From an uncultured Wenzhouxiangella sp. (GTDB lineage Bacteria; Pseudomonadota; Gammaproteobacteria; Xanthomonadales; Wenzhouxiangellaceae): a stretch of 64,000 nucleotides of DNA. Positions 7,118 through 55,186 of this stretch are shown one piece after another; within the stretch, counting starts at the first letter, position 1; each line of letters begins with the position of its first letter. The DNA is taken from contig CAZDFS010000008.1 in NCBI GenBank assembly GCA_964504865.1, forward strand, positions 6,711 through 70,710, read 5' to 3'. The notes under the pieces are model-generated. The model ran no database searches and was not told the origin of the DNA. It saw only the letters and a program-made list of their open reading frames with translations. The translations under genes were made by a program, and so were the position numbers.

Positions 7118-7146
7118 GGGAAACTCGCTCGCCGCCGCGCGGCGAG

Positions 7147-24590: not shown

Positions 24591-25629
24591 GGCTCACTCC
24601 GTCTTCTCCGACGAGAATCTTTTCACCACTGTCTTTGAAGAGAACCGCCGCGTAGGTGCTGCCCAGGCGATCCTCCTGGAGGTCGAATTCGCGGGCCCGG
24701 GGGTCGTAGATCAGCTGCGCCGCTCCCGCACCCACCATCAACGCGCGTCCCCGGGGATCGACAGCGCCGCCTTTCAGCGTCGACACGAGCGGGTTTTCGA
24801 GCTCGGTCCAGCTCTGGCCCTGATTGCGCGAGAGCTGGACATGCCCCCTCAGACCAAAAGCCAGAATTTCCGAATCCAGCTGGAGCAGGCCGAACATGGA
24901 CCCGGCGTAGGGAAACCGGAAAGCTTCCCAGTTGACGCCACCGTCGACGGACCGGAAGCCATAGCCGCGCTCGGCAGCGATCAGCCAGTCATCATCCCCG
25001 ATCGCCAGAAAAGCATTGAGGTGGCACTCCATGAATTCATAGCATCCGCGGTCGAACAAGGCATCTTCGCCAAAGAGCTCCTCATCCATGGTCGAATCCT
25101 CAGCCGCCTCGGCGGCAAGGGCCTCCCAGTCGATATCCTCCGAGGTCACGAGGTCGGCCATTTCCAGGATGTCCCAATCGTCACCGGCGTTTCTGGTGCG
25201 CATGAACAGGCCGTAGGCACCGATGGCCACACCGTTGTTGGCGTCGAAGAAGTGCACATCCAGCAGGGGTTTTTCCGCCTCCGGATCGAAATGCTGAAGA
25301 ACCCACGTCTGGCCGAGGTCTCGGCTGTGGATGATCGCCGAATCATGTCCGACCGCCCAGAGGCGCCCACCGGAAAAGGCGACGCGCGTCAGCGTCGACC
25401 GAACAGGAACGGTCTCGGCCTGTTCCCAATTCTCTCCGTCGGAGGACAGCACCACGTGGCCACGCGCACCGACGGCAACGTAGCGCTGACCCGCGCGCTC
25501 GATGTCCAGCAGCAGGCTTTCCGCCGCCAATCGGGCCTCCTGAGCCGGTTGCGGTTCGCTCATCTGAGCCAGGGAAAGCCCCGGCAGGAGCAGAGTGATC
25601 GAAACCAACGTGAACAATATCGACTTCAT
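24583..25629 (-). CDS. Periplasmic BNR/Ycf48-like beta-propeller protein
   Basis: Signal peptide MKSILFTLVSITLLLPGLSLA and repeated S-x-D-x-G-x-x-W sialidase/BNR motifs (SSDGENW, SRDLGQTW, TRNAGDDW, SVDGGVNW, SRNQGQSW). Start set at ATG 25629, behind AGGAGAAAGG. Confidence 0.78.
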   Translation of the reverse strand: MKSILFTLVSITLLLPGLSLAQMSEPQPAQEARLAAESLLLDIERAGQRYVAVGARGHVVLSSDGENWEQAETVPVRSTLTRVAFSGGRLWAVGHDSAIIHSRDLGQTWVLQHFDPEAEKPLLDVHFFDANNGVAIGAYGLFMRTRNAGDDWDILEMADLVTSEDIDWEALAAEAAEDSTMDEELFGEDALFDRGCYEFMECHLNAFLAIGDDDWLIAAERGYGFRSVDGGVNWEAFRFPYAGSMFGLLQLDSEILAFGLRGHVQLSRNQGQSWTELENPLVSTLKGGAVDPRGRALMVGAGAAQLIYDPRAREFDLQEDRLGSTYAAVLFKDSGEKILVGEDGVSHE

Positions 25630-25832
25630 GCCGCCTTTCTCCTGATTCTCTAGCACGTATCTCTCGGCAAGCTTTCGTGTCCGGGACTGCCCCGCGGCGG
25701 ATTCACCCCGTGCCGTCGGCTCAGTACGGATACGGCTCGACGCTGCGGTTGCCTTGATCAGGGTCTTCCGTGACCGCTGATCGACGGCGAAAACCTGTCG
25801 GAGCCGCGAGCCTGAAGCTCGGGCAGTCGCGT

Positions 25833-25863
25833 AAAAAAAAGGCCGACCGGAGTCCGGTCGACC
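25833..25863 (-). terminator. Rho-independent terminator between the DUF1329 and BNR genes
   Basis: The minus strand reads GGTCGACCGGACTCCGGTCGGCC followed by TTTTTTTT. Confidence 0.7.
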
Positions 25864-25887
25864 TTCCTTGAGGTCTATCCAGTGAAA

Positions 25888-27852: not shown

Positions 27853-27866
27853 GATCGGATCTCCCC

Positions 27867-29756
27867 TCAGAACGAGTAGTTGACAGTGGCCGAGACAAAG
27901 TCACGATCGCTGAGCAAGTTGTTGATACCACCACCAAAGAAGTTGGTGTATGCGAAGCCGACCTGGAGATTGGCCAGGTAGCTGAAGTTCAAGCCGACGG
28001 TGGCCTGCATCCGATCTTCGATGAACGGCCCACCCGGCCCCGGCGTTACGCCCTGGACATCGTGATTGAAGGCCAGGCGCGGACTCATGTTCCATGAGGT
28101 TCCGAAGACCGAGTTGTAGGTCGGTGCGATGACCAGGCGGTAGCCCCAGCTGAACGGCGTGGCAAAGCCGTCGGTCGTGGTCGTGGGGTTGCGCCCGGCG
28201 CCAGCGAATCGGTTCGGTCCACCGCCGGTATCCGTACCGGGGCCTTCGAAGCGAAGCTCGTCCTGGCTCGGCAGGTCCCAGAAGTGAGTCGCGCCGAGCT
28301 CGGCGACGACGGCAACCTGATCCGCGCCAATGAAGTTGTTCGGCCCGAAAACGTTGGTAAAGGTCATCTGCAGCTGCGACGACTTGCGGCGCTCGTAGCC
28401 CGGGATGAACTCGCCCGGCCCGTAGGATCCCAGCTGGCTGCGGAACCGACTGTACTCGTCGGGGATGGCGCCGTTAAGGGGCGACAGACCCGCAAAGAGC
28501 AGCTCGACATCATCGATCTGGACCGGCACGTTGTCACGGTAGGTCAGCTCGCCGGACCAGGACCAGTTCCCTGGAATCGTGGTGTTGAAGCTCAGGCCCA
28601 ACATGTCGATATCTTCCGGAAACTCGACGATCACGGCACCGGTGGAAACATCGCTGCTGGTCACGGCCTGACCCGAAAGCACCGGCAGGCGGCTGTGATA
28701 ACGCAGGTAGTAGAGACCGAATTCCGTCTCGTTCAGTCCGGCGGCAAAGTAGCGGAAAGCAAGACCGTACTGGCCGCTGTCCGAGGCCTTGTTGTCTTCT
28801 GCCCGGGGGAACGCTGCGGAGCAGCCAGCACCTACCAGGGCCGGGGACAGGTCAGTGCGGTCGCTGGCGCCGAAATTGCCCGCCCCGCAGACCGTATCGA
28901 AGAGATCCGCGTTGATCACCGGCTGCGGCACCAGACCGAAGTTCAGCATGGCGTAGCGACCGCCGGCGGTGGCGAAGTCGTTGGTCGAGAAGAAGGTCCC
29001 GACCGGTTCGGCCTCGACCTCGTCGAACTCGAACATGACCAGTGCTTCCATCGACAGGTTGGTGGTCAGGTCAATGGAGCCCCAGAGCATGTTCAGGGGC
29101 AGAAACGCGTTTCTCAGCTCGGCCCCTGCGGTCCGAATCGCGGTGATATCGACCGGGTTGATGACGTTCAGGCCACCGGGAATGAAGGTGGACTCCCCCC
29201 AGCTGATGACCTGGCGGCCAGCGCGCATCGACAGCAGGCGATCGCCGACCTCGAAATCCGCATAAGCGTAGGCGTCGAGCAGGCGTGCCCGTGAGCCGAC
29301 GCGATCCTTGGCGCGGTCGGTCAGGAAGTCGGCGTCGTTGAGCTCGAAGTCGTAGTTGTAGTCGCCGCGAACGAAGAAGCCGTAGTTCTTGTAGTCGACC
29401 GCCAGCTCCGAAGTCACGCGGACCGCGTTGAAGATCAGGTCGTTCTTGTCGAAGTTGGTATTGCCGTCATCGGAGTTGGCGGAAAAGCGCCCGAGCGCTG
29501 CCTCTTGAGCAGCGGGCGGTGCCGCGAAAATCGCCGGATTGAAGCGCGATTTTGCGACCAGGTCGTTGTCCCGACCCTCAACGCGCATGCCGACGCCGTA
29601 GCTGACGGTGGTGTCCAGGCGAATGCTGACCTCATCGGTGCTGAGGTCAACGGCCTGGGCCGGATTGGCCGTCAAAGCAAGACCGATCGCGCTTGCCAAC
29701 AGGCAGGGACGGATCAGGCCTGCTTTGGGCAGTGTGTTTTTCTTGAGCCGATTCAT
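27867..29756 (-). CDS. DUF1302-family outer-membrane beta-barrel protein
   Basis: 629 aa. Signal peptide ...LTANPAQA, alternating beta-strand pattern and a C-terminal ...ATVNYSF (terminal Phe beta-signal). Confidence 0.8.
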   Translation of the reverse strand: MNRLKKNTLPKAGLIRPCLLASAIGLALTANPAQAVDLSTDEVSIRLDTTVSYGVGMRVEGRDNDLVAKSRFNPAIFAAPPAAQEAALGRFSANSDDGNTNFDKNDLIFNAVRVTSELAVDYKNYGFFVRGDYNYDFELNDADFLTDRAKDRVGSRARLLDAYAYADFEVGDRLLSMRAGRQVISWGESTFIPGGLNVINPVDITAIRTAGAELRNAFLPLNMLWGSIDLTTNLSMEALVMFEFDEVEAEPVGTFFSTNDFATAGGRYAMLNFGLVPQPVINADLFDTVCGAGNFGASDRTDLSPALVGAGCSAAFPRAEDNKASDSGQYGLAFRYFAAGLNETEFGLYYLRYHSRLPVLSGQAVTSSDVSTGAVIVEFPEDIDMLGLSFNTTIPGNWSWSGELTYRDNVPVQIDDVELLFAGLSPLNGAIPDEYSRFRSQLGSYGPGEFIPGYERRKSSQLQMTFTNVFGPNNFIGADQVAVVAELGATHFWDLPSQDELRFEGPGTDTGGGPNRFAGAGRNPTTTTDGFATPFSWGYRLVIAPTYNSVFGTSWNMSPRLAFNHDVQGVTPGPGGPFIEDRMQATVGLNFSYLANLQVGFAYTNFFGGGINNLLSDRDFVSATVNYSF

Positions 29757-29770
29757 CGAATTTCTCCCTG

Positions 29771-31918
29771 TCAGTCGGTCTGGATCAGTGACGTGTCGCC
29801 GACCAGAACCGCGGCGCCACCGGAGGCCATCATGCTGGTGGCCTGGGTCTGCATTTCAGTCGTCACCGCAAGCGAAGCCGTCGGGTCGAGCAAGGACCCG
29901 TGGCTACCCTGAATGAAGCGGACGGCGCCGCGAATACCGGCCGGGTCAACGTTCTGACCGGCGTCGGTAATCGGGCTCAAGCCCATCACGCGGATCAGGG
30001 GCTCGGTGCCCGACAAGGGCGCCCCTGGCACAGCGTTCGGAATGACCGTATCGCCCGCCACCTGATGGAGCAGGACGGAATTGGTCTGAACCGTCGTTGC
30101 GCCCCAGTTGATCGGATCAGCGGAATCGAGGACGGTCTGGGCAATCAGCAGAAACTGATTGAAGTCTGCCGAGCCAGGCTCGATGCCGGCGGCCTGCAGA
30201 CCGCCGCGAACGACGGGCCCGAAGGTCTGGGAACCGTTGAGCAGCTGCGCGATGCCGCCACCCGGCACCGAAAGAACCGCGTTGTTGACGGTCGGCTCGA
30301 CGGCGAGGAAGGGAATGCCGTTGATCGAACCCAGCGACAGGCCGGTGAAGTTGATGCTCGACCCGTCGATGTCGCCGAGCTGGTCACCGTCCAGGTCGAT
30401 GTTCGGAATATTCAGCGCCAGGATGCTCAGGTCCGCCTGCGCCTGGCGATTGTTGTCCCGCGAGGTCAGCAGCGAGGGCAGATTGATGAACCACGCCCCG
30501 GACGAGTCGATCGCCATATCCGGCCCCGGCGCACCGGTCTCGTTATTCTGCAGATCGAGATCGAAGGTCCGCTCGCGGGCAAACGGTCCGAAGGGCGTAT
30601 TGCCGATGTAGAAGGGGTTGGTCACATCGGTAATGCCGTGGAGCGGCTGGTCGATGGCGATGGTCGCCAGACCCTGGGAGGCAAAGGCGTCGGCGATCGC
30701 CAGCATCTGGGTCCGGTTGCCGGTGATGCCGTGCTGGAAGATCACGATGGGCCAGCCAGCGGCAGGCCGGGTCTGGCCCGAGCTGGCGTTGGGCACGGTC
30801 ATGATCACCGGCACGCGCTCGGTCGAGGTCTGGACCGGGAACGGATTGGCCACGGTCACGGCCGTGGACGTCGGGTCAAGCCCGAGTTCGCTGAAGGGCG
30901 GGACGTAGGCGCCCGGCTCGGCGGTCCAGAAGTCGCTCAGCGGGGCCGTCGGATTCTCCGGCGTGGGCACGCCGAGGTAGTAGGGCACTTCCATCATGCC
31001 GATGTAGACGTTGGCAATACCCGGTGAGGCGCCCGGCGGCAGCACGTCCGCCGTGGTCAGGCAGACCTCCGGGGCGGGGCAGGCCTGAGCGACCGTGATC
31101 GAGGTCGGCTGCGCCTGGGAGCGGATCGCGCTCAATACCGGCGTGACCGCCTGGGTCGTGCCGGTGAAGGACAGCACGATGTCGTCGGGATTGATGCCGG
31201 CCGAGGCCGCGGCGGCTTCCTGGGCGTTGGTCAGCTGGCGCAGCGGCTCGAGAGCCTGAGCCGTGGCGTTGTCGAAGAGCGTATCGGTGCTGTTACCGCC
31301 GCCATCGACCAATGGCGACGTGCGCTTGGTGATGAAGTAGGTCTGCGACGGTGTCGCTGCCGTTCCCGCCGTGTCCAGGATGCCGTTGGTGGCGACGACC
31401 ATGTAGCCGGTCATCTCCTGCAGGGGCTGCAGGGGCACGACGGCAATCGTGCGGCCCGTCGGGTCCAGGGTTGCGACATAGTCGACGCCCGGCGTCAGCT
31501 CGCGGTTGATGCCACCCACGGCAATCGTGCCCTGAATGAATGCCACCTCGAAGAAGCGCACCGTATTGGCGTTGACCGTGTTCGGGTCGATGTCCTGGGA
31601 GAAAGAAAAGGTCCATGGCGTGACCGGACTGAAGCCGTCGAGCTGGGACAGGGCAACGGCGGGATCGCCGAAGTCCGTCGGATCGGCCACCGGCGGGTTC
31701 AGGGTCAGATCGCCCGACCCCGACAGCAGCAGGTTGGTCGGGAACGGCAGGTTGCCGCCGGAGGGATCAAAGATGGCTTCATTGATCTGCGTGGTCGGAT
31801 TGCCATCCGGGTTGGTCGCCGGGTTGACGGGCGTGGCTCGGTCAACGCTGGACGAGCCGCCGCAGCCGACAAGCCACAACAGCGCCAATCCAGGAGCCAG
31901 AAGCGGGCGTACCTTCAT
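29771..31918 (-). CDS. Lipoprotein lipase/phospholipase of the VolA/Pla-1/cef type
   Basis: 715 aa. Lipobox LWLVGC, alpha/beta-hydrolase core IVIFQHGITGNR...IDQPLHG and nucleophile elbow GLSLG (GxSxG). Confidence 0.72.
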   Translation of the reverse strand: MKVRPLLAPGLALLWLVGCGGSSSVDRATPVNPATNPDGNPTTQINEAIFDPSGGNLPFPTNLLLSGSGDLTLNPPVADPTDFGDPAVALSQLDGFSPVTPWTFSFSQDIDPNTVNANTVRFFEVAFIQGTIAVGGINRELTPGVDYVATLDPTGRTIAVVPLQPLQEMTGYMVVATNGILDTAGTAATPSQTYFITKRTSPLVDGGGNSTDTLFDNATAQALEPLRQLTNAQEAAAASAGINPDDIVLSFTGTTQAVTPVLSAIRSQAQPTSITVAQACPAPEVCLTTADVLPPGASPGIANVYIGMMEVPYYLGVPTPENPTAPLSDFWTAEPGAYVPPFSELGLDPTSTAVTVANPFPVQTSTERVPVIMTVPNASSGQTRPAAGWPIVIFQHGITGNRTQMLAIADAFASQGLATIAIDQPLHGITDVTNPFYIGNTPFGPFARERTFDLDLQNNETGAPGPDMAIDSSGAWFINLPSLLTSRDNNRQAQADLSILALNIPNIDLDGDQLGDIDGSSINFTGLSLGSINGIPFLAVEPTVNNAVLSVPGGGIAQLLNGSQTFGPVVRGGLQAAGIEPGSADFNQFLLIAQTVLDSADPINWGATTVQTNSVLLHQVAGDTVIPNAVPGAPLSGTEPLIRVMGLSPITDAGQNVDPAGIRGAVRFIQGSHGSLLDPTASLAVTTEMQTQATSMMASGGAAVLVGDTSLIQTD

Positions 31919-35496: not shown

Positions 35497-37833
35497 TCAG
35501 AGCGCTTCGAGCACCATTTCGATCGCCTCGACCCAGCCCGGCGCAACACCCGGCGCGGCGCGATAGATCGCCAGGGTGCGCTCGGCGTGGTCCCGCGCCA
35601 GCGCGATCTGTCCCTGGTCTCGGTAAATCAGCGCCAGGGCCTCGTAGGCCTTGCCCGTGCGTGGATGGTCGTCCCCCCAGCCGGCCCGGGCCACCTCCAG
35701 TGCTCGCCTGGCGTGAACCTCGGCTTCATCGAGCTGGCCTGCGATGGTCAGCATGCGCGCCAGGTTGGTCAGGCCCGTGGCGGTCTGCGGGTGCGCATCG
35801 CCAAGCGTTGCCAGACGAATTTCCACGGAACGGCGCTGGGTCGCGATCGCTTCGTCATAGCGTTCGAGGGTGTGGAACAGGATCGATTGGTTGTTCAGGG
35901 CAATCGCGTAGTTGGGGTGCATCTGGCCGGTCGTGGCTTCCTGCACGGCGAGCGCTTCGTCGAAGGCATCGAGGGCGCCCTGCCCGTCACCCAGCCCGTC
36001 TCGGGCCGTGGCGAGATTACTCCACAGGGTGGCCAGCGTGTCCGGGGTAATCGCTGTCTCATCGACAAAGGTCAGCGCGCGCTCGGCCAGCTGGCTCGCC
36101 TCCTCGTAGCGGCCGGCGTCGTTGGCCATGCCCGACCAGTTGACGAGGACGGTGGCCCGCCGCGTGCGCGCCTCCTGGCCCGGCAGCTGGTCGATCCATT
36201 CCAGCGCGCGGCGAAAATGGTCTCGCGCCTGTTCGAAGTCACTCTCCCACCAGGCGACGATGGCCAACCCATCCTCGACCTCGGACATGGCCAGCGGGTT
36301 GCCTAACGGCCGGCGCAGGTCAGCGGATCGCTCAAGCTGCTCCCGCGCCAGGGCGGTTTCGCCCAGGTTCTGCAGGGCGTACCCGATCTGATAGCGCATG
36401 TCGGCCTCGAGCTCGGGCTGACCCGCGAATCGATCGCCAAGCTCCGGCAGCGACTGCTTGATGGCCCCGGCCAGGGTGGCCGAGGCGGCGTTCTCGTAGG
36501 GGTCGGCGCGGTTGATCATTTCAACGAGGAACTGCCGGGCGGCCTCGGCCTGATCGCGCTGGCGCTGGGCCTCGCTGGACTGGATCAGAACCGCAACCAG
36601 CGCCCCCGACAGCAGGACAAACGCGAGTGCCGTCGACGCCACGCCGGCCCGGTGACGGCCGATGAATTTGCTCAGGCGATAGAGGCGCGACGCCCCGCGC
36701 GCCCGCACGGGCTGGCCGGCCAGGTGGCGCTCGATATCCTCACGCAGCGCCATCACGCTGGCAAAACGCTCGACGGGCTCGCGGCGCATGGCCGTCATCA
36801 CGATGCGGTCGATATCACCGCGCAGTCGCTCGCGGAGCTGACCGGCGCCCTCAAGGCCGGCCGGCAGGGCGTCCCGGCCCCGCACGACCGCCTGGCTGGG
36901 ATCGGCCGGCAGGGTGCCCAGGACCACGCGTTCCGCCTCGGCCGGACTCAGCGCCGAAATCTGGTAAGGACGCTGACCGGTCACCAGTTCATACAGCATG
37001 ACCCCCATCGAATAGACGTCGCTGGGCATCCCGATCGCCTGCCCCGTGAGCTGTTCCGGACTGGCGTATTCGGGCGTCAGCGGTCGCTGCTCGATGCGCG
37101 TTTCTGGCAGCTCCAGATCCAGCGCCTCCGGCGACAGCACCTTGGCAATGCCGAAATCGATCAACTTGGGATCCCCGGCCTCGCTGATCAGAACATTACC
37201 TGGCTTGATATCGCGGTGAACGATGCCACGCCGATGGGCAAAGGCCAGGGCGTCACAGACCTTGCCGAACAGCTTGAGGCGCTCAGCCAGATCGAGACGC
37301 TGGCGCTCACAGTAGCGAGTGATGGGCAGGCCCTCCACGAGCTCCATGGCCACGTAAGGGGTGCCGTCTGCCGCCGTTCCCCCGTCAATGATTCGGGCGA
37401 TATTCGGGTGCTCGAGGGAGGCCAGAATCTGTCGCTCGGCATCGAATCGGCGCCGCGCCGAGGTGTCCATGTGATGGGCCCGGAACAGCTTGATCGCAAC
37501 GTCGTGGCGGTAGGTCCCATCCACTCGGCGGGCCCGATAGACCGTGCTCATGCCGCCCGACGCGAGCTCGCTGATGAGCTCGTAGGCCCCGAGGCGCTCG
37601 CCGACCCGGTTGATGGCTGAGTGCGGGCTGCATTCGAGGAACGCCCCGCTCCGGCGGTCCGCCTCGAGCAGGCGGAGGACCGCGGCACGCAGGGCCTGGT
37701 TCGCTCCGCAGCGGGACATCAACCAGTCCTTGCGCTCGGACTCGGGCTGGTCCAGGCTTTCGGAAAACAGCGCCATCGCCTCACGGTCCTGGGACCCGAC
37801 CGGCTGCGTCGGCGGATCGGCGTCAGTGGACAT
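35497..37833 (-). CDS. Transmembrane Ser/Thr protein kinase with C-terminal TPR domain
   Basis: 778 aa. VAIK, HRDIKPGN (RD type), DFG and SPEQ motifs. TM helix (ASTALAFVLLSGALVAVLI) followed by TPR repeats. Confidence 0.85.
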   Translation of the reverse strand: MSTDADPPTQPVGSQDREAMALFSESLDQPESERKDWLMSRCGANQALRAAVLRLLEADRRSGAFLECSPHSAINRVGERLGAYELISELASGGMSTVYRARRVDGTYRHDVAIKLFRAHHMDTSARRRFDAERQILASLEHPNIARIIDGGTAADGTPYVAMELVEGLPITRYCERQRLDLAERLKLFGKVCDALAFAHRRGIVHRDIKPGNVLISEAGDPKLIDFGIAKVLSPEALDLELPETRIEQRPLTPEYASPEQLTGQAIGMPSDVYSMGVMLYELVTGQRPYQISALSPAEAERVVLGTLPADPSQAVVRGRDALPAGLEGAGQLRERLRGDIDRIVMTAMRREPVERFASVMALREDIERHLAGQPVRARGASRLYRLSKFIGRHRAGVASTALAFVLLSGALVAVLIQSSEAQRQRDQAEAARQFLVEMINRADPYENAASATLAGAIKQSLPELGDRFAGQPELEADMRYQIGYALQNLGETALAREQLERSADLRRPLGNPLAMSEVEDGLAIVAWWESDFEQARDHFRRALEWIDQLPGQEARTRRATVLVNWSGMANDAGRYEEASQLAERALTFVDETAITPDTLATLWSNLATARDGLGDGQGALDAFDEALAVQEATTGQMHPNYAIALNNQSILFHTLERYDEAIATQRRSVEIRLATLGDAHPQTATGLTNLARMLTIAGQLDEAEVHARRALEVARAGWGDDHPRTGKAYEALALIYRDQGQIALARDHAERTLAIYRAAPGVAPGWVEAIEMVLEAL

Positions 37834-45469: not shown

Positions 45470-46012
45470 TTACCAACGCGAGTTCATGCGTTCGTCGGAA
45501 TACTCGGGCGCATTCTTCAGCATGTCTTCGGTCATATCGATCGACAGGGTGAAGTCATCACCGTCAACAATCCGCTCGATGCGGTCCCAGGAGATCGCCA
45601 GATCACGCTCACCAAGACCAAGAAGACCACCGACGCTGATCAGCACGGCGGTCACCTGGCCGTCCTCGTCCAGCAGCAGGTCGGTGATCTCACCGATCGA
45701 CTCGTCGTTGCGCCGATTGGTGATTTCGTGGCCGACCAGGCTATCGGAGTGATAGCCGCGCACCGGAAGAGTTTCAATAAAACCGCCTTGTGCGGTGGCG
45801 TTCGCTCTCGGCGTGCTTGATCGGGTGGCTGCGGTGGTCCGCTGATTGGAGCGCTGCCCATCCTGATTCATGTTGGCTGTCGCCATGGCCGTGGCCCGCT
45901 CCGGGTCGCAAGGACAGTCGCAGTCGTCTTCGCCGGCGTGTGCCATCGGCATGCTCAGGGCCAGAACCGACAGCAGGACAGCTGCGCATTTGGTGGAATT
46001 GAACGTCGTCAT
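45470..46012 (-). CDS. Secreted PRC-barrel domain protein with Cys-rich N-terminal linker
   Basis: Signal peptide MTTFNSTKCAAVLLSVLALSMPMAHA, then GEDDCDCPCDP, then a PRC-barrel (…LVGHEITNRRNDESIGEITDLLLDEDGQVTAVLISVGGLLGLGERDLAISW). Start set at ATG 46012. Confidence 0.7.
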   Translation of the reverse strand: MTTFNSTKCAAVLLSVLALSMPMAHAGEDDCDCPCDPERATAMATANMNQDGQRSNQRTTAATRSSTPRANATAQGGFIETLPVRGYHSDSLVGHEITNRRNDESIGEITDLLLDEDGQVTAVLISVGGLLGLGERDLAISWDRIERIVDGDDFTLSIDMTEDMLKNAPEYSDERMNSRW

Positions 46013-46293
46013 GGGTGTTCTCCAGGTGTGCCGGGATGGCCGAATTACCAGCCGGCGCCCAGTAGCCGGCCAAACGGATCGGTCAGCGGTGAGAGGGTTG
46101 AAGTATCGGACCTGACCGCCGCCGGGTCTGTGCGTTGCGGCACCCATCGCGTCACGGTCATCGACTGCGCCATTGATCCGTCGGTTCGGGCCGATCGGCC
46201 CGGCCTCAGCTCGGAATAGATATTCGCCGGTGCACAGAATGGAGCGGATCGTTCGCGGCACCACTGGCTCGCCCCGGAAACAGGGTGCGATGG

Positions 46294-46972: not shown

Positions 46973-47692
46973 TCAGCCTTCATCGCGGGAGAACTGACGC
47001 TGATAGGCGGCAAGGCTGACCTGATAGCATTCGCAGGCCACCGTTTCCAGGCCGGGACGCGACAGCACCTGGATGTGGCCTCGGGCGTAGCGGATGAGTT
47101 GCTGCGCCTGCAGCTGGCCGGCTGCGATGGTGACCGCACTGCGCCGCACACCGAGCATGCGGGCAAGAAAGAGATGGGTCAGCACCAGCGGCTCGCCGCG
47201 GGCGCGGTCATCCATCATCAGCAGCCATCGGGCCAGGCGCGCGGGCACTTCATGAAAGGCATTACAGGCCGCGGTCTGGGCCAATTGCTCACCGAGCACG
47301 AACAGGTAGCCCTCGATCAGACGCTTCAATATCCGGCTGTTATCGAGCTGCTGGGAGAAAGCGACCCCCGACAGGGTCAGGGCTGCGCCCGCGCCCTGGA
47401 CGACTGCAGCCACGGGGTGGTGATCGACGCCCAGGGCCAGGGTAGCGCCAAGCATGCCCTCATACCCGATCATGCCCAGCTCAAGAGGCTTGTGACCGTC
47501 GACCCGCACAGTGACCGAAATGACGGCGGTTGTCGGAAACAGGACTTGCGTAACAGGCCGGCCCGCTTCGGCCAGCGGCTGATCGAAGGCGAGGTTGACC
47601 GAATCGCAGCCGGCGAGCAGCGAACGAGCGACCGCAGCGGGCAATCTATCGATCAGCTCATTGGTTGTAGGCATTGTGATTGAATCAGACAT
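46973..47692 (-). CDS. Crp/Fnr-family transcriptional regulator (paralog of 43540-44259)
   Basis: Start set at ATG 47692 (MSDSITMPTTNELIDRLP). HTH is LFLARMLGVRRSAVTIAAGQLQ. Shares the C-terminal ...VL.RP.LE...CECY... motif with the other copy. Confidence 0.8.
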   Translation of the reverse strand: MSDSITMPTTNELIDRLPAAVARSLLAGCDSVNLAFDQPLAEAGRPVTQVLFPTTAVISVTVRVDGHKPLELGMIGYEGMLGATLALGVDHHPVAAVVQGAGAALTLSGVAFSQQLDNSRILKRLIEGYLFVLGEQLAQTAACNAFHEVPARLARWLLMMDDRARGEPLVLTHLFLARMLGVRRSAVTIAAGQLQAQQLIRYARGHIQVLSRPGLETVACECYQVSLAAYQRQFSRDEG

Positions 47693-47757
47693 CAGCTTCC
47701 TTGGTCGTGGACACTTGGGCTGCCGGGTTTGGGATGCACTTCGGCGTCCCTCGATAT

Positions 47758-48549
47758 CTAATGCTTGCAGCCGTGCCGGTGAAGGTCTGTTCGCTGCAGC
47801 ACGTAGGGTATGCGCGAGATGCGACAGCCTGGCGTGTGCTTGAGTTGACTGGCCAGGCCGACCGATGAGGACAGGGCAATCAGCCACTTGCCCGGATCGA
47901 AGTGGCACCAGCGCGCGCCGTTGCGATAGTCGGCCTGAAAGGCGTGATGGAAGTTGTGGTACCCCTCGCCCCAGGTCAGCAGCGCGAGCCAGCCATTGTC
48001 GCGCGAGCTGTTGTCCTCGCTGTAATGACGCTTACCCCAGCTGTGGGCCAGCGAATTGATGAAGAAGGTGCTGTGTTGACTGAACACCAGACGCACCGCA
48101 CCGGCCAGCAACACCACACCAACCAGATCCCCGACCAGCAAGCCGATCAGCATCGGAACACCCAGGTTGAGCGTCCAGGTCAAGGCCCGGTAGTAGCGAT
48201 GCTGCCATCTGAGCAGCGGGTCGCGCTCGATCTGATCGACAAAACGATGATGGATGCGATGACGCGCGCACCAGACCAGCACCGAGTTCTGCAGGGAAAA
48301 GGTACCGCATATGCCAAATATCAAGCCCAGTGGTCAGGCCGCCCGATAGCTGCGATGGGAAAATAGTCGATGGTAGCCGGCGGTGATCGAAAGCCCACTG
48401 AACAGCCAGATCAGACCCGCCGTCCACCAGGACGCGGCGCTGAACCCGACCAGCACCCCCCATAGCGGTGCAACCACAAGGGCCAGCAGGTGTACGACTG
48501 CAAAGTACAGCACGTTGGAAATGGCCAGAGCAGGCTTATTGTGATTCAT
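47758..48549 (-). pseudogene. Acyl-CoA/acyl-lipid delta-9-type fatty acid desaturase interrupted by an in-frame TGA
   Basis: ORFs 48549-48334 and 48324-47758 are in the same frame, separated by one TGA (48336-48334). His boxes HRLFSH, HRIHH and HNFHH are present. A family-conserved segment after the second box appears to be missing. Confidence 0.65.
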
Positions 48550-48706
48550 CCGAACCTACTCCTGGCGATCGCTAAAGCAGTAAGGAGATTGAAGTACGCC
48601 AATCTCCAGAACTTCCGTTCGCTGGCGAACATACGGCGATCAGGGTCCCGACGCGACGGCGCGGGTGACCCTCGCCTGCGGCCCGGACCGGGTCCGGTCT
48701 GTGCTG

Positions 48707-50251
48707 CTATGTCTTGTTGACTCCATCTCCATTGCGCCGTTCGGCATCGCGGGTGACCTGCATCACTTGGGCGAAGTTAGAACCTACCGTGGCTCGCTCC
48801 ATGTCGGATCGATAGAAGCAGTACCCGCAGTCGGGATCAAGCTTGGCGTGGTACATCGCTATGTCCGCGCAGCGCATCAGGCGATCCAGGTCCCTGCCGT
48901 GGTTGGGGTATACGCTGATGCCTATGCTGACCGTCAGCGCTGGCCAGCAACTCTCGAGATGGGGCAGGCACGCCAGCACACCCTGCAGCTTTTTCGCCAC
49001 CTTGGCGGCGTCTACGGCCCGGTTGATTTCACTCAGCAGCACGACGAACTCATCCCCACCCTGCCGACCAACCAGGTCGGTATCGCGCACAGCGGCCTCG
49101 AGCGCTCGAGCCAGCTGCTGCAGCGCTTTATCGCCAGCCGAATGACCATAGCGGTCGTTGAGTAATTTGAAGCGATCCAGATCCATGAACAGCAAGGCCA
49201 GGCGTCGACCGTGTCGTCTGGCCAGTCTGATCGCCTGCTCGAATCGCTCTGCCAAGGCCAGGCGATTGGGCAGGCCGGTCAGCGTATCATGGCGGGCCAG
49301 ATGCGCCATCTTCTCGGTGGTCTCCCTGGATAACTTACGGTCTCGAAAAATGACAACAGCGCCCGTGAGCTCACCCGAATCATCCAGTATCGGGGCCGCC
49401 GAATCCTCGACCGCCAGTTCGGTCCCGTCGGGCCGGGACAGGACGCTGTCGGGTGCCAGCCGGATGATGCCCTGAGCCTGCATGGCCTGGGCGGCCGGAT
49501 TCCTCGCCGACTCCCGGGTGTACGAATTGATGACCTTGAAGACCTGATCGAACGGTTGACCGCAGGCGACTTCATGCGACCAGCCAGTGAGTTGTTCGGC
49601 CATCGGATTCAGATACGTCACCCGTCCCTCGACGTCGGTACAGATGACTGCATCACCGATGCACTCCAGGGTCACCCGCGCCCGCGCGCATTCGGTTTGC
49701 AGCGAATGGCGCAGCGTCCGATCGGCTTGCCGCGCGGATATGCTCTCGTTGATGTCTTCAATCGTGTGGATCAGGTCGGAATCATCGCGATCTGCGTGCA
49801 GCCTGGTCGCGCGGTGCCTGACCCACAGCCGGTTTCCGACGTTGTTGACCAGTCGGAGCTCGAATGCTCGGGGCTGGCCGGCACCGGATTCAGGCTCAGG
49901 TTCGGCCATTGCCGGCAGCCAGTCTCGCGCGTCTATCAACTCAGCCCAGTGGCGCCCGATCAGGGCCGTTGACGAACAGCTCAGCATGCGCTGGCAGACC
50001 TTATTGCTGTAGCAGATGGTGCCGTCGAAGCGGCTGATCAGAATGCCCATCGGCATGGCGTCCAGTAGCGATGATGCCTGCTCGTCGAACGAGGCGGTAT
50101 CAGCCTGGACGAAACACGGACATCGGACCATCAGGCTTCCTCCCTCGTTCTCCCAGTCCTCGGTCGCTGCACAGACCCGGCGCGGGGCCAGGCGCTGGAC
50201 TTGTTTGGACTGGAGGTCAGGCTCCGAGAGCGGACGACGAGGACTAGACAT
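48707..50251 (-). CDS. PAS-PAS-GGDEF diguanylate cyclase
   Basis: Two PAS-like segments then a GGDEF domain (RQGGDEFVVLL). The start is uncertain: 50251 or ATG 50131. Confidence 0.85.
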   Translation of the reverse strand: MSSPRRPLSEPDLQSKQVQRLAPRRVCAATEDWENEGGSLMVRCPCFVQADTASFDEQASSLLDAMPMGILISRFDGTICYSNKVCQRMLSCSSTALIGRHWAELIDARDWLPAMAEPEPESGAGQPRAFELRLVNNVGNRLWVRHRATRLHADRDDSDLIHTIEDINESISARQADRTLRHSLQTECARARVTLECIGDAVICTDVEGRVTYLNPMAEQLTGWSHEVACGQPFDQVFKVINSYTRESARNPAAQAMQAQGIIRLAPDSVLSRPDGTELAVEDSAAPILDDSGELTGAVVIFRDRKLSRETTEKMAHLARHDTLTGLPNRLALAERFEQAIRLARRHGRRLALLFMDLDRFKLLNDRYGHSAGDKALQQLARALEAAVRDTDLVGRQGGDEFVVLLSEINRAVDAAKVAKKLQGVLACLPHLESCWPALTVSIGISVYPNHGRDLDRLMRCADIAMYHAKLDPDCGYCFYRSDMERATVGSNFAQVMQVTRDAERRNGDGVNKT

Positions 50252-50384
50252 AGACAGACTGCATCAATGGACCCAAAGATTAAGTCTGAACATCGTGCCC
50301 GGAACGCTCGGTGCGCTGGCGAACAGAGCCGCCAAGGCGTTCTGGGCAAACTCGTTGTTACAACCCAACCCTGGAGTCGCCCGC

Positions 50385-50543
50385 ATGAGTCTTGGAACCA
50401 TTCTGTTGATTGTCCTGGTGCTGATCCTGATCGGCATCATTCCGGCCTGGCCACATAGCCGCAGCTGGGGCTACGGTCCCAGTGGCGCCATTGGTGTCAT
50501 CGTGGTGATCCTGCTGATCCTGGCGCTGATGGGGAGGATCTGA
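50385..50543 (+). CDS. DUF3309-family small membrane protein
   Basis: 52 aa: MSLGTILLIVLVLILIGIIPAWPHSRSWGYGPSGAIGVIVVILLILALMGRI. The track ORF is over-extended. Confidence 0.75.
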   Translation: MSLGTILLIVLVLILIGIIPAWPHSRSWGYGPSGAIGVIVVILLILALMGRI

Positions 50544-50588
50544 CGATCCGATCAGCCGGGATCGAGGTCCCGCAGCAGTCAGGAGACT

Positions 50589-50627
50589 AAAAGAAACATG
50601 GGCGCGAGATCGCCCATGCTTTTCTTC
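50589..50627. terminator. Bidirectional intrinsic terminator between convergent genes
   Basis: A-tract, CATGGGCG-cgagat-CGCCCATG, T-tract (aaaagaaa...cttttctt). Confidence 0.7.
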
Positions 50628-50631
50628 GGAT

Positions 50632-51300
50632 TCAGGCTCCCCTGGAACGCCGACGCGCAGTCAGGCCAATGCCGCCAAGGAGCGAGAACATCCCGCCCAG
50701 CGCCATCAACGGCAGTATACCGGCCGTTGCCGGCAGCACGGCCGGTCGTTCTGTGCGGACCGGTTCAGCCTGTGCCATGCGTGTTGAGGATCGAGTCGCG
50801 GTAGCCTCCGGGTCGGATTCGACAACCCGAGCCATTTCTCCTGAAGGTGCCCCGGCGGTTGTGGCGAAAGCATACCGGTCCTCGGGCACATAGAAGTTGA
50901 GGATCTGCCCCTTCATCAGCTCACTGAACCGATAATCGCGGCCGTCGAGTAGCACGCGCTGACCCGGGGTCGGCATCAGCCTGACTCTGCCAAGCGCCCG
51001 GCCACGGTCATTGCGAAAATCCGACGAGATGGACCCATCGCTGTGGTTGTGCTGGAATTCAGCCTCGAAGCGAGCCCATTTCTGTTGCCCAACGGTGATC
51101 ACTTCCTGACAGCCGTTGACGACCCATGGATACTGTCGCAGCAGGTCGCGATGCCAGTTGATATCTTCGCAGCTGGACCGATCCACTTCCGGATCCGGCA
51201 TGTCGCGTGCAGATTGCTGGGCGGCCGCAATGCCGGTCCAGCCCAAAGCCAGCAGCAGGGCCGCCGTGGTCAGGCTCGATAGGTTCAAACGCAGGTTCAT
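50632..51300 (-). CDS. Secreted protein with C-terminal LPATAG sorting signal (putative sortase substrate)
   Basis: 222 aa. Signal peptide ...LALGWTGIAAA. C-terminus is LPATAG + ILPLMALGGMFSLLGGIGL + TARRRSRGA. AGGAG RBS. Its ATG overlaps the sortase TGA. Confidence 0.65.
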   Translation of the reverse strand: MNLRLNLSSLTTAALLLALGWTGIAAAQQSARDMPDPEVDRSSCEDINWHRDLLRQYPWVVNGCQEVITVGQQKWARFEAEFQHNHSDGSISSDFRNDRGRALGRVRLMPTPGQRVLLDGRDYRFSELMKGQILNFYVPEDRYAFATTAGAPSGEMARVVESDPEATATRSSTRMAQAEPVRTERPAVLPATAGILPLMALGGMFSLLGGIGLTARRRSRGA

Positions 51301-52082
51301 GGTGTTTCTCCTGATGGTGGTGCGGTGAGAAGCACTTCCGGACGGGGTGCCTTCTCGGGATGATCAACAGCAGTGGCCTGAACGATGTATCGCTGTGGCG
51401 CATTGCCGATGAAATAGAATGGGTAGCAGGTCACCAGGGTCACGGTCGTGACCTCGCTGTCGTCAAGTACCGAAACGTCTTCGGGATCGACGATATCGAG
51501 CCGGCTGACGCGGTAATGAACCTGGCCAGAGAGGCTTTCCAGAACCATTGGGTCGCCGATCCTGATGTCCTTGAGCGGACGAAAATAGCGGTCACGATGG
51601 GCCGCGATCGCCATATTGCCGACGGTATTCGGGGCCGCTGTGCCGCCGATCCAGCCAGCACCGCGGCTCAGGTTGAGCTCGTTCAGTTCGCGATAGACAG
51701 GCACTTCGAGATCCAGGCCGGCGATTCGCAAAACAGCAATCGGAAGCGCTGCATCGCTGCCGGTCCCCGGGCGATCCGGGGCCGGATCCATCTCCCTCAG
51801 ACCGTCTTGCGAGTGAGACTCAACCCCTAAAGACAGATCGTTGAGATGGCGACTGTCGGAGGCTGATGCACGCGCCTCAGAGAACAGACTGACACCCTGC
51901 TGTCGAAGCTCCTCCAGCCGGATGCTTGCCGTCATGTAGAACAGAATCAAACCAAGGCCGACGAACCAGCAAACCAGCTCCAGGACAATGCCTCCCGAGC
52001 ATCCGGCCATCGGCAATTTCTCGGCCCCGACAGGGGGCGTTGGGAAACTGGCTCGGCAGACTGTAAACGACCGCAGGATCAT
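51297..52082 (-). CDS. Sortase (proteobacterial / class GN-like)
   Basis: 261 aa from ATG 52082 (AAGGAG 8 nt upstream). TM helix IVLELVCWFVGLGLILFYM. Catalytic contexts AIAAHRD, TLVTCYPF and APQRYIVQA. Confidence 0.8.
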   Translation of the reverse strand: MILRSFTVCRASFPTPPVGAEKLPMAGCSGGIVLELVCWFVGLGLILFYMTASIRLEELRQQGVSLFSEARASASDSRHLNDLSLGVESHSQDGLREMDPAPDRPGTGSDAALPIAVLRIAGLDLEVPVYRELNELNLSRGAGWIGGTAAPNTVGNMAIAAHRDRYFRPLKDIRIGDPMVLESLSGQVHYRVSRLDIVDPEDVSVLDDSEVTTVTLVTCYPFYFIGNAPQRYIVQATAVDHPEKAPRPEVLLTAPPSGETP

Positions 52083-52380
52083 GGCGGTTGCTCCTTGAAG
52101 GGTCACGACAGGACGCTATCTTGAGGCCGCTGTTCGAGTTCGTCTGTTCGCAATCGCACGCGTGGGCAAGCTCAGTCCGAGCACCACGGGTCGATTTCGG
52201 AGGAGACGCTCGAGGGAAAACCGAGGACAGTTGGGTGGGGACTGCAGAAGGCAGGCAAAGACTTGTCAGTCTGCTTGCAGTTCGCCAAGGAAAGAAAAAG
52301 ATTCGATTGTTTGTAACTTTTCAGGCCTTTCAGGCGTCATAGGAACTGAAGGGCAACGAAAACGGTCAAGGAGTCTTACC

Positions 52381-52725
52381 GTGAGAGTCATCATCCCCAT
52401 CCTGATTGCCGCTGTCTGGACCAGCGCGACGGTCAAGATCAATGGCGTCTGGCCACCGTCGAAGATCGCCGACTCCGTCGCTTCGATCAGCGAACAGGTC
52501 GAGGCGCCGGCCCGCTCGGTGCTCGCGCTGCTGCAGGACGAGCCAGCCGAGTCTCTTCGCAGCGTGCGGCCGGTGGGTCATGCGCCTGCGCTCGACCCAC
52601 GACGCATCGCCCTGCCCGGCCTGCCGAAGCCCTCGCGCCATCCGGTTGCGGCCGACGCACTCGACGCCCGGGATCTTCTTGATCCGCCGGCGGGCAGTGA
52701 AGTGATCCGCCGCGAGCGCTGTTAG
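52381..52725 (+). CDS. Hypothetical small protein with N-terminal hydrophobic segment
   Basis: GTG 52381 sits 7 nt after AAGGAG. VRVIIPILIAAVWTSA... with a Pro/Arg-rich remainder. No family recognised, and it may not be a real gene. Confidence 0.25.
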   Translation: MRVIIPILIAAVWTSATVKINGVWPPSKIADSVASISEQVEAPARSVLALLQDEPAESLRSVRPVGHAPALDPRRIALPGLPKPSRHPVAADALDARDLLDPPAGSEVIRRERC

Positions 52726-55040
52726 CTCTCGAACAGCTCCCCGCTGCCGAGCGCGCGCTGGCGCTGCTCGTTCTGTGCATCCACCACCGCCACCGCGGTC
52801 ATGTTGACGACCCGCCTCACCGTCGCTGACGGCGTCAGCACGTGCGCTGGTCGGCCAGCCCCCATCAGGATCGGGCCGATCGTCACCGCTTTGCCGATCA
52901 CCCGCGCCATGGAAAAGGCGATGTGTGCCGCGTCCTGATTCGGCATGATCAGCAGATTTGCCGGTCCTTTCAGCTCGGAGTTCGGAAACACGCGCTCGCG
53001 GATCAGGGGCTGCAGCGCGGCATCCGCGCGCATCTCGCCTTCGACTTCCAGCTCCGGCGCACGTTCGCGCAGCAAGGCAAGCACCTGACGCATCTTTGAG
53101 GCCTGCGAATCGATATGACTGCCGAAGTTCGAGTGCGACACCAGGGCGATCTTCGGCGTGATGCCGAACAGGCGAACCTTTTCCGCCGCCATGATGGTCA
53201 GCTCGGCGAGCTGTTCCGCGCTCGGATCCGGATTGACATGGGTATCGCAGACGAAGATCGTCTCGGTCTCGGTGGCCATGGCCGACAGCGCGCCCAGCGT
53301 TCTGCAGCCCGGAGCGAGCCCGAGAACCTCGGTGACGTACTTCAATTTCTTGCCGTACTGGCCCACCACGCCGCAGATGAGCGCGTCGGCCTCGTTGCGG
53401 TGCACCATGATGGCGGCGATGACCGTATTGCGCGTGCGCACGATCGCCTTGGCCGAGTCCGGCGTCACGCCGCGCCGTTCGGTGATGGAGTGGAAGGTCT
53501 GCCAGTACTCGCGGAAGCGGGGGTCTGACTCGGGATTGACCAGCTCGAAATCGACGCCAGGGCGAACCCTCAGCCCGGCGCGCTCGATGCGCATCTCGAC
53601 CACGCTGGGCCGGCCGACGAGAATCGGCTTGGCCAGGCCGTCGTCGACGATGGTCTGCACCGCACGGAGTACCAGCTCTTCTTCGCCCTCGGCAAAGACC
53701 ACCCGCTTCGGATCCTTGCGCGCGGCATCGAAGACCGGCTTCATCACCAGGCCCGTGCGGAAGACATACTGACTCAGGCGCTCGCGGTAGGCCTCCATGT
53801 CCTCGATCGGTCGCGTGGCCACGCCGGAGTCCATCGCGGCCCTGGCCACCGCTGGCGCCAGCTGCACGAGCAGGCGCGGATCGAAGGGCTGCGGAATCAG
53901 ATAATCCGGCCCGAAGCGGGGGACGTCACCACCGTAGGCGGCTGCCGACACGTCCGAGGCCTCGATGCGAGCCAGCTCGGCGATGGCGTGCACGCAGGCC
54001 ATCTTCATCTCATCGTTGATGCCCGTCGCACCGACATCGAGCGCGCCGCGGAAGATATAGGGGAAACACAGGACGTTATTGACCTGATTGGGGTAGTCCG
54101 AGCGCCCGGTCGCGATCAGCGCATCGGGTCGCGCTTCGCGGGCCACGTCGGGCATGATCTCCGGCGTCGGGTTGGCGAGCGCCAGGATGATCGGCTTATC
54201 GGCCATGGCCTTGACCATCTCGGGTTTCAGGACCCCGGGGGCCGAGACGCCGAGAAAGACGTCCGCACCCTCGATCACCTCACCGAGCGTGCGGGCGTCG
54301 GTCTTGATGGCATAGGTGGCCTTGCGCGGATCCATGTCGGCTTCGCGACCGGCATAGACCACGCCCTCGCGATCGCAGACGATGACATTCTCGCGCTTGA
54401 GCCCCATCGTCAGGAGCAGATCGAGGCAGGCCATGCCCGCCGCACCGGCGCCGGACGCCACCAGGCGAATGTCTTCGATGCGCTTGCCGGAGAGCTTCAG
54501 GCCGTTGACCAGGGCGGCGGCGGTGATGATCGCCGTGCCGTGCTGATCGTCGTGGAAGACCGGAATGCCCATGCGGTCTTTCAGGGCCTCTTCGACCCGA
54601 AAGCACTCGGGCGCCTTGATGTCCTCCAGGTTGATGCCACCAAAGGTCGGCTCGAGGCTGGCGATAATATCGATCAGCTTGTCCGGATCGGTCTCGTCGA
54701 TCTCGATATCGAACACGTCGATGCCGGCGAAGCGCTTGAACAGCACCCCCTTGCCTTCCATCACCGGCTTCGAGGCCAGCGCGCCGATCGCTCCGAGCCC
54801 GAGGACCGCCGTGCCGTTGGAGATGACCGCCACCAGGTTGCCGCGGGCCGTGTACTCGCGAGCGCTGTCCGGATTCTCGGCGATCGCCTCGCTGGCCGCC
54901 GCCACGCCGGGCGAATAGGCCAGGGCCAGGTCCTTGGCCGTGGTCAGGGCCTTGGTCGGCGAGACCTTGATCTTGCCGGGCACCGGATAGCGGTGATAAT
55001 CCAGCGCCTGTTCGCGAAACTTGTCCTTGCTGTCGGTCAT
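52722..55040 (-). CDS. maeB: NADP-dependent malic enzyme (malic enzyme + phosphotransacetylase-like domain)
   Basis: 772 aa from ATG 55040 ([24 protein letters not shown]). MaeB architecture. The track ORF extends spuriously into the hairpin repeat. Confidence 0.93.
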
Positions 55041-55066
55041 GGTCGGGTATCCGGAGTTGGTTTTCT

Positions 55067-55140
55067 GAACCACGAAGGGCACGAAGAACACGAAGAAAGG
55101 CCTGCTTTCCCTTCGTGCGCTTCGTGCCCTTCGTGGTTTC
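55067..55140. repeat. Long near-perfect hairpin built from inverted triplets of a CACGAAG(R)(R) 9-mer
   Basis: Left arm is gaaccacgaagggcacgaagaacacgaagaaagg. The right arm's reverse complement is gaaaccacgaagggcacgaagcgcacgaagggaaag. Lies between the fba stop and the maeB start. Confidence 0.8.
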
Positions 55141-55186
55141 AATCACGGGCTGCCGTCCGGCAACCCGCATCGAACGCTGACGATGA

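Follow-up and report, generated by a model that had tools for sequence, protein, structure and literature searches.

Two overlapping genes on the minus strand of the window, the whole 64,000 nucleotide (nt) stretch of contig CAZDFS010000008.1 from an uncultured Wenzhouxiangella sp., encode a class-D-like sortase of 261 aa (51297–52082) and a predicted exported protein of 222 aa with a C-terminal sorting signal (50632–51300), referred to below as the cargo. The two very probably constitute a functional, dedicated sortase–substrate pair, and the reading favoured here, to which a probability of roughly 0.55 is assigned, is that of a dedicated sortase system by which the cargo would be tethered covalently to the periplasmic peptidoglycan. 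Sortases fix proteins to the cell wall in Gram-positive bacteria. The host of this pair is a diderm with lipopolysaccharide (LPS), since the window also encodes LptD (8523–10733; PF04453, E 3e-92), which inserts LPS into the outer membrane. A distinct dedicated sortase–cargo pair in a diderm had been proposed in the initial annotation of the window; this proposal is supported by the retention of the sorting tail in 105 of 105 close homologues of the cargo, by a sortase homologue in 31 of 35 cargo loci, and by the joint presence or absence of tail and sortase among distant relatives (5/5 versus 0/5).

The sortase and its cargo

The sortase was recognized both by PF04203 (Sortase; E 4e-25; 88.4 bits, gathering score 26.6) and by the generic NCBIfam sortase model TIGR01076 (69.1 bits, cut-off 39.35). 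Its best match in the PDB was 2LN7, SrtC of Bacillus anthracis (E 5e-16), with which the three catalytic residues could be aligned: His162 (AAHRD; 51597–51599) with the HRD, Cys219 (TLVTCYPF; 51426–51428) with the TLTTCYPF and Arg231 (APQRYIV; 51390–51392) with the APDRYII of that enzyme. In 31 aligned sequences of the family, three distant ones among them, none of these three residues varied. An N-terminal hydrophobic stretch in the translation, at about residues 31–56 (IVLELVCWFVGLGLILFYMTASI; 51915–51992), is the predicted membrane anchor, and Glu35, Trp39 and Gly42 within this helix were nearly invariant in the family alignment. The transmembrane helix and the contexts AIAAHRD, TLVTCYPF and APQRYIVQA on which the initial annotation had based its call are thus all present, of the profile hidden Markov model (HMM) searches that it had proposed as a check, those with the general sortase models came out above the curated cut-offs, and, judged by sequence, 51297–52082 encodes a genuine sortase whose triad is intact. 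The open reading frame (ORF) was read from an ATG at 52082, preceded at 8 nt by a Shine–Dalgarno sequence (AAGGAG, 52091–52096). An alternative GTG start at 52106 would give 269 aa, and the JGI annotation of an identical protein has 237 aa; the 261 aa call fits the length of the homologues, which are mostly of about 255–258 aa.

Assignment to a sortase class was less straightforward. The best scores among the class models were those of the class D models NF033746 and NF058671, the latter LPxTATN-specific (111.9 and 116.2 bits), which lie below the respective cut-offs of 165 and 140, and every family member tested fell below both of these; in six other members, too, class D gave the highest class scores, short of the cut-offs. 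Class C models scored moderately (58–83 bits), far below cut-off and below the class D scores. Against the class GN equivalog TIGR03784 the window sortase reached 72.4 bits and seven other family members 74–95 bits, the cut-off being 158.25. The same pattern over the class models was seen in seven other members of the clade, including the sortase that adjoins a distant cargo in locus L036. By sequence the enzyme is therefore best described as class-D-like but unclassified, as it lies below every class-specific cut-off and passed only the generic sortase model; several of its homologues are labelled 'class D sortase' by the NCBI pipeline. Membership of class GN was rejected on the HMM score and on gene context. 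The initial annotation had set the pair apart from the proteobacterial system with VIT/vWA cargo, and that distinction holds, since TIGR03784 was not reached and the cargo has neither a VIT nor a vWA domain.

The cargo (50632–51300) begins with a Sec signal peptide (residues 1–27; 51220–51300) for which cleavage between AAA and QQ is predicted by the AxA rule; Ala27 and Gln28 were nearly invariant in an alignment of 105 cargo sequences. This is followed by a beta-rich core domain of an uncharacterised family (residues 41–160; 50821–51180) and by a flexible linker (residues 161–188; 50737–50820) that has a predicted local distance difference test score (pLDDT) of about 50–57 and varies in length among homologues. 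The protein ends in the sorting motif LPATAG (residues 189–194; 50719–50736), in which the mechanism of sortases predicts Thr192–Ala193 as the scissile bond, a hydrophobic helix (residues 195–213; ILPLMALGGMFSLLGGIGL) and the basic tail TARRRSRGA (residues 214–222; helix and tail together 50635–50718). Signal peptide, motif, hydrophobic segment of about 19 residues and basic tail are all as initially described. So is the pair of cysteines, Cys44 and Cys64, each conserved in at least 90 % of the 105 homologues.

A word-indexed search with the cargo returned 104 clusters, all of about 210–255 aa and nearly all unnamed. Within the 105-sequence alignment, L189, P190, T192, A193 and P197 of the tail were invariant, and G194, P195, L196, A200, L201, G203, L207, L208, G210 and R216–218 were conserved in at least 90 % of sequences. 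LPxTA[GS] was found in all 105, which answers the question of tail conservation among close homologues raised initially, and LPATAG in 86. On this alignment the conservation of the tail exceeds what a throw-away anchor needs and resembles that of the tags of other dedicated sorting systems. Models of Gram-positive anchors capture the tails unevenly: PF00746 (Gram_pos_anchor) matched 20 of 41 cargo homologues weakly (best E 2e-4), and a distant member, P0304, exceeded the cut-off of TIGR01167 (21.1 against 15.9) and is named an LPXTG anchor protein by NCBI. The LPxTATN signal model was not reached.

No Pfam or NCBIfam family matched the cargo. AlphaFold2 gave a confident model of the core (residues 38–165; pLDDT 91.6, predicted template-modelling score 0.84), in which short helices precede about nine strands, with the linker and tail flexible. 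In Foldseek searches the core model had no significant match in the PDB (best E 0.14, template-modelling (TM) score ≤ 0.34) or in BFVD, and full-length and core models together returned only noise from these two databases (E ≥ 0.03, TM ≤ 0.37); weak rows for OB-fold and galectin structures were at noise level and were discounted. A sequence profile of the core alignment found nothing in the PDB even at E 10. The cargo domain, as modelled, thus has no fold relative in the PDB. Structure prediction, suggested at the outset as a check, accordingly leaves standing the view that the cargo has no recognisable domain, as do the searches of Pfam, NCBIfam and the PDB.

Co-occurrence of sortase and sorting tail

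When one genome per species was scanned, 35 loci with a cargo relative were obtained. A sortase homologue was present in 31 of these, directly upstream and on the same strand in 29; it was divergent in L021 and lay 1.5 kb downstream of the cargo in L029. For L014 just 600 bp of upstream sequence was available, and the sortase was not among it. In the other three loci (L010, L013 and L020) a gene of the CRP family lies upstream of the cargo, in the place of the sortase. Co-occurrence with an adjacent sortase, another of the checks proposed initially, is therefore the rule. Exactly one LPxT-tailed ORF was found per cargo locus. In the window the ATGA at 51297–51300 combines the stop codon of the sortase gene with the start codon of the cargo gene, as first noted, implying translational coupling, and the same 4 nt overlap was seen in at least 12 related loci and in the distant L036. 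Pairwise identities of sortases and cargoes were correlated (r = 0.83, 435 non-independent pairs), which is expected for a co-inherited unit and does not prove function.

Named relatives of both proteins came from Wenzhouxiangella, Lysobacterales/Xanthomonadaceae, Steroidobacteraceae, Lentisalinibacter, Pseudomarimonas and Shewanella benthica, all of them Gammaproteobacteria. The majority of the family members are metagenomic in origin, and the cultured carriers of the pair include Wenzhouxiangella spp., Lentisalinibacter, Pseudomarimonas salicorniae and Shewanella benthica. A recent transfer or a relic from a Gram-positive bacterium was rejected, the pair being conserved with an intact triad in several gammaproteobacterial orders at 30–99 % identity.

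Two sets of loci depart from the usual arrangement. L010, L013 and L020 share the order CRP-family regulator, cargo (at about 6001), PAS fragment, DUF4398-OmpA protein and PAS-GGDEF protein, and their cargo keeps LPATAGPLP. L013 is labelled a Melioribacteraceae metagenome-assembled genome (MAG), yet it is collinear with Lysobacterales and Wenzhouxiangellaceae loci, which suggests mis-binning. In L048, from a Wenzhouxiangellaceae MAG, the class-D-like sortase P0189 (5001–5630) converges on a 570 aa Ice_binding/SpaA-like repeat protein (5968–7680) whose C-terminus, AVPVFSRG followed by a helix and RQRLNPNRR, is tripartite and lacks LPxTG; from its sequence, this tail may be a different sorting tag or mark a different type of substrate.

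Through the cargo, a superfamily of periplasmic domains is defined that is as yet uncharacterised. A core-only alignment, used as the profile for an exhaustive search, gave 437 representatives (at 50 % identity) at E ≤ 0.001, 230 of them at E ≤ 1e-10, and the tails of the best 148 of the 437 were surveyed. Of the 148, 71 have a [LM]PxT[AG] tail that includes a helix and basic residues, and 63 of these 71 have T-A at the predicted scissile position. About 56 representatives end right behind the domain, six have a helix without the motif, and in three (P0229, P0252 and P0259) the tail is replaced by a peptidoglycan-binding domain of the OmpA family (PF00691, E 1e-17 to 1e-23). Lipoprotein anchoring of the tail-less relatives was set aside, as a lipobox was found in only two or three candidates. 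Pfam scans of 10 distant members left the core domain unassigned and identified only OmpA or crystallin domains as additions. The crystallin case, P0365 (303 aa), combines a cargo-type core with a beta/gamma-crystallin domain at the C-terminus (PF08964, E 3e-9), a further indication that the core is a module of the periplasm or of the extracellular space.

The association between tail and sortase was examined in 10 look-ups of distant members, one of which (the P0289 locus) was short. All five tail-bearing members (P0304, P0290, P0299, P0334 and P0319) had an adjacent sortase, compared with none of the five without a tail (P0272, P0280, P0289, P0301 and the OmpA fusion P0229); tail and sortase have therefore been gained and lost together. 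Of the computational evidence assembled here, this speaks most strongly for the tail as the substrate signal of this sortase. The initial annotation had named homologues that commonly lack the tail as a finding that would speak against the pairing. Such homologues are indeed common in the distant superfamily (about 56 of 148) but not among the close homologues, all 105 of which keep the tail, and, as the loss of the tail accompanies the absence of the sortase, the tail-less members strengthen the link between the two instead of refuting it.

Proposed mechanism and alternative readings

In the mechanism that we propose, the cargo would be exported by Sec, lose its signal peptide and form a Cys44–Cys64 disulfide, its precursor being retained in the inner membrane by the C-terminal helix and the RRR tail. 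The sortase would sit in the same membrane through its single N-terminal helix, with the catalytic domain in the periplasm, where Cys219 would attack the Thr192–Ala193 bond of LPATAG to give a thioacyl intermediate. This would be resolved by an amine, for which the epsilon-amino group of meso-diaminopimelate (m-DAP) in a peptidoglycan stem peptide or in lipid II is the most likely candidate, and the product would be a beta-domain of roughly 120 residues on a flexible linker of roughly 30 residues, bound to the sacculus inside the periplasm. Class D SrtC of B. anthracis links LPNTA substrates to m-DAP, and m-DAP is also a constituent of Gram-negative peptidoglycan; m-DAP is regarded as the most likely amine for these two reasons and because the domain is elsewhere fused to a module that binds peptidoglycan non-covalently. 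The recurrence of DUF4398-OmpA and BON-domain proteins close to the pair also speaks for peptidoglycan as the destination. Cleavage between threonine and alanine fits a class-D-type specificity, given LPxTA in 105 of 105 close homologues and T-A in 63 of 71 distant tails. From the conserved residues it may be speculated, in addition, that recognition involves helix–helix contacts within the membrane, between the sortase helix with Glu35, Trp39 and Gly42 and the glycine-rich helix and RRR of the cargo. We infer the T-A cleavage, the peptidoglycan acceptor and any physiological role from these analogies and comparisons.

Several observations weigh against attachment to peptidoglycan by a dedicated sortase. 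The tail of the window cargo matched no anchor model in Pfam or NCBIfam (E ≤ 1). In L010, L013 and L020 the tail is kept although no sortase lies within at least 5 kb, and the related sortase P0189 sits apart from any cargo of the same family. The OmpA fusions are rare (three of 148 representatives), and, as the sortase lies below the class D cut-offs, borrowing the acceptor of SrtC is an analogy. To our knowledge, neither cleavage nor an acceptor has been shown biochemically for any proteobacterial sortase. A 2023 preprint, too, calls the roles of proteobacterial sortases in Gram-negative bacteria still unknown.

The most serious competitor, which we consider unlikely but by no means negligible, accepts that the sortase processes the cargo and differs in the acceptor. 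This would be water, making the enzyme a maturation protease by which the domain is released to the periplasm or beyond, or another amine, for example phosphatidylethanolamine or a lysine in an OmpA-like, BON-domain or lipoprotein partner. Pairing and motif are equally compatible with any acceptor, and the unusually conserved helix of the tail, which suggests recognition in the membrane, is uninformative on this point. In about 40 % of the superfamily representatives the protein is free in the periplasm and lacks an anchor, so the domain can act untethered, and OmpA-like proteins encoded nearby are potential protein acceptors. These genes occur, however, in only about a quarter of the loci and not in the window, so that no candidate acceptor protein adjoins the pair consistently. 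Sortases normally hydrolyse their substrates only as a minor side reaction. Peptidoglycan is favoured over these acceptors by the use of m-DAP by the closest characterised enzyme and by the OmpA-domain fusions, which point to the wall itself.

It is improbable that the tail is a plain C-terminal membrane anchor and that the adjacent sortase is inactive or serves substrates elsewhere in the genome. The loci that retain a tail with no nearby sortase, the isolated position of P0189 and the failure of the window tail to match anchor HMMs would all suit this explanation, but a plain anchor has no need of an L-P-x-T-A that is invariant in 105 of 105 sequences, nor does it account for an invariant catalytic triad, for the 5/5 versus 0/5 co-occurrence, for the 4 nt overlap of the genes or for the lack of a second LPxT-tailed ORF in any locus. 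Assembly of cargo molecules, joined head to tail, into a fibre resembling a pilus, in the manner of class C sortases, is more improbable still and was rejected. A dedicated sortase with a single substrate does resemble pilus loci, and the class C models give their moderate 58–83 bits; these scores are nevertheless far below cut-off and under those of class D, and no lysine column of the cargo alignment reached 90 %, the best being K74 (Lys in 75 of 105 sequences, 71 %), so that an invariant pilin-motif lysine is lacking. Neither a second sortase nor a tip or base pilin was found, and a fibre would need to pass the outer membrane, for which no secretin or usher is encoded nearby. Attachment of the cargo to peptidoglycan by its own sortase thus remains the preferred reading.

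Genomic context and relation to known sorting systems

The pair is flanked on one side by maeB (52722–55142) and on the other by a terminator and a PAS-PAS-GGDEF diguanylate cyclase (48707–50251, minus strand; GGDEF E 1e-46 in Pfam, with PAS domains). The intrinsic terminator (50594–50621) has a hairpin with a T run on each strand, as the initial annotation had read it when it described the pair as insulated, and is common to the cargo gene and to a convergent gene for a small DUF3309 membrane protein (50385–50543, plus strand; PF11752, E 7e-23); a 175 aa ORF from 50016 is probably an over-extension of the latter. Within about 5 kb of the pair, maeB, fba, the DUF3309 gene, the PAS-GGDEF gene, a broken desaturase gene and a CRP-like regulator gene were identified, and no two-component system was found among the neighbours in the window.

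The description of this neighbourhood as accessory and decaying holds only in part. The fatty-acid desaturase gene (47758–48549, minus strand) is split by an in-frame TGA (48334–48336; GCC TGA CCA) into ORFs of 71 and 188 aa, PF00487 matching the C-terminal part, and is either a pseudogene or the product of a sequencing error. The order maeB, sortase, cargo and PAS/GGDEF is, on the other hand, conserved in Wenzhouxiangella genomes, and the region is therefore not an obvious island. The spacer between maeB and the sortase gene (52083–52721) is 639 nt long, compared with about 125 nt in the Wenzhouxiangella loci L001 and L004; it had no match in Rfam, no repeats within the window, no homology to related loci and no consensus promoter. 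Rfam found nothing in 48000–53500. Because regulators of the CRP family recur as neighbours, the DNA preceding the sortase gene was inspected for FNR and CRP boxes, both in the window and in 30 loci; no consistent site emerged.

Full-length orthologues of the cyclase (44–51 % identity, >400 aa) adjoin the pair in 11 loci (L001, L002, L004, L005, L007, L008, L009, L012, L028, L030 and L031). In Lentisalinibacter the orthologue begins 34 nt past the cargo gene, and in another MAG it also flanks the pair; the cyclase is a possible third component of the system. Regulators of the CRP family were found near the pair in 13 of the 35 loci, and DUF4398-OmpA and BON-domain proteins recur nearby. From these neighbours, the pair may have a role in the envelope or in stress, with a link to cyclic di-GMP signalling.

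Other genes of the window include those for a PRC-barrel protein (45470–46264) and a CRP-like helix–turn–helix regulator (46973–47908), both on the minus strand a few kb downstream of the pair, and for two large Ser/Thr protein kinases that carry TPR arrays at the C-terminus (18706–21270 and 35497–37833, both minus strand). An MMPL/RND-like transporter and DUF1329 (LolA-like) and DUF1302 proteins are encoded in a row at 21975–29756 (minus strand), followed by a lipase-N/Big_5 protein (29771–31918); the set is a recurrent and poorly understood group of outer-membrane genes.

To the question of what sortases do in bacteria that possess an outer membrane, this pair brings a simpler arrangement than that of class GN, consisting of two overlapping genes and one small cargo. 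Because it is compact, widespread and present in cultured strains, the role of a sortase in Gram-negative bacteria becomes directly testable, and with it the question of whether proteins are attached covalently to Gram-negative peptidoglycan by sortases, beyond the Lpp and L,D-transpeptidase routes. In the literature searched there was no paper joining Wenzhouxiangella and sortase, and no description of a class-D-like proteobacterial sortase, the proteobacterial sortases covered being only those termed 'marine' or class GN. Automated annotation at NCBI already catches pieces of the system ('class D sortase' and 'LPXTG cell wall anchor domain-containing protein'), and no curated family covers the cargo. 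What is new is a class-D-like dedicated sortase system in diderms with a new cargo domain; the chemistry of the enzyme itself is as expected.

A broader proposal, put forward tentatively and with the odds somewhat against it, is that the pair represents a second gammaproteobacterial lineage of dedicated sortases, which would descend from class D and be independent of class GN. It would attach a periplasmic domain of new fold to peptidoglycan, the domain having interchangeable anchors (sortase tail, OmpA domain or none), and would be wired to the PAS-GGDEF cyclase, possibly via the conserved membrane peptide left over from cleavage. If so, the pair would provide the first tractable model of sortase function in a diderm, and it would reveal a novel means by which the sacculus of Gram-negative bacteria is decorated.

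Among characterised systems, class D SrtC of Bacillus is the closest. Its HRD, TLxTCYPF and APxRYI contexts are identical to those of the window sortase, its substrates BasH and BasI (LPNTA) share with the cargo (LPATAG) a Thr-Ala at the scissile position, and in both cases substrates are very few and dedicated and m-DAP peptidoglycan is available in the host. The systems differ in that the present host is an LPS diderm, in which the product would be periplasmic instead of surface-exposed, in the motif (LPxTAGPLP compared with LPNTA or LPxTATN) and in the cargo domain, which is unrelated to class D substrates and unassigned to a fold.

The class GN system of Shewanella (SO2192–SO2196) comprises a TIGR03784 sortase, a VIT/vWA target, the OmpA-like protein PdsO and the two-component system PdsRS/PghKR. 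As in that system, a dedicated sortase is combined with a single adjacent cargo in Gammaproteobacteria, Thr is followed by Ala or Ser at the scissile position, and OmpA-like proteins lie near the pair in a subset of loci. The window cargo is, however, only 222 aa long and lacks VIT and vWA domains, the sortase scores 72 bits against the 158 demanded by TIGR03784, and the recurrent partners are a PAS-GGDEF cyclase and CRP-family regulators instead of PdsRS. A further likeness is to the exosortase/PEP-CTERM, rhombosortase/GlyGly-CTERM and myxosortase/MYXO-CTERM systems, which also have a tripartite C-terminal tag of short motif, helix and basic cluster, with a helix conserved beyond mere hydrophobicity and a modular occurrence on some homologues only. 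Those systems use polytopic intramembrane enzymes on dozens of substrates per genome, whereas here the predicted processing enzyme is a cysteine transpeptidase of the sortase fold (PF04203), with one cargo per locus.

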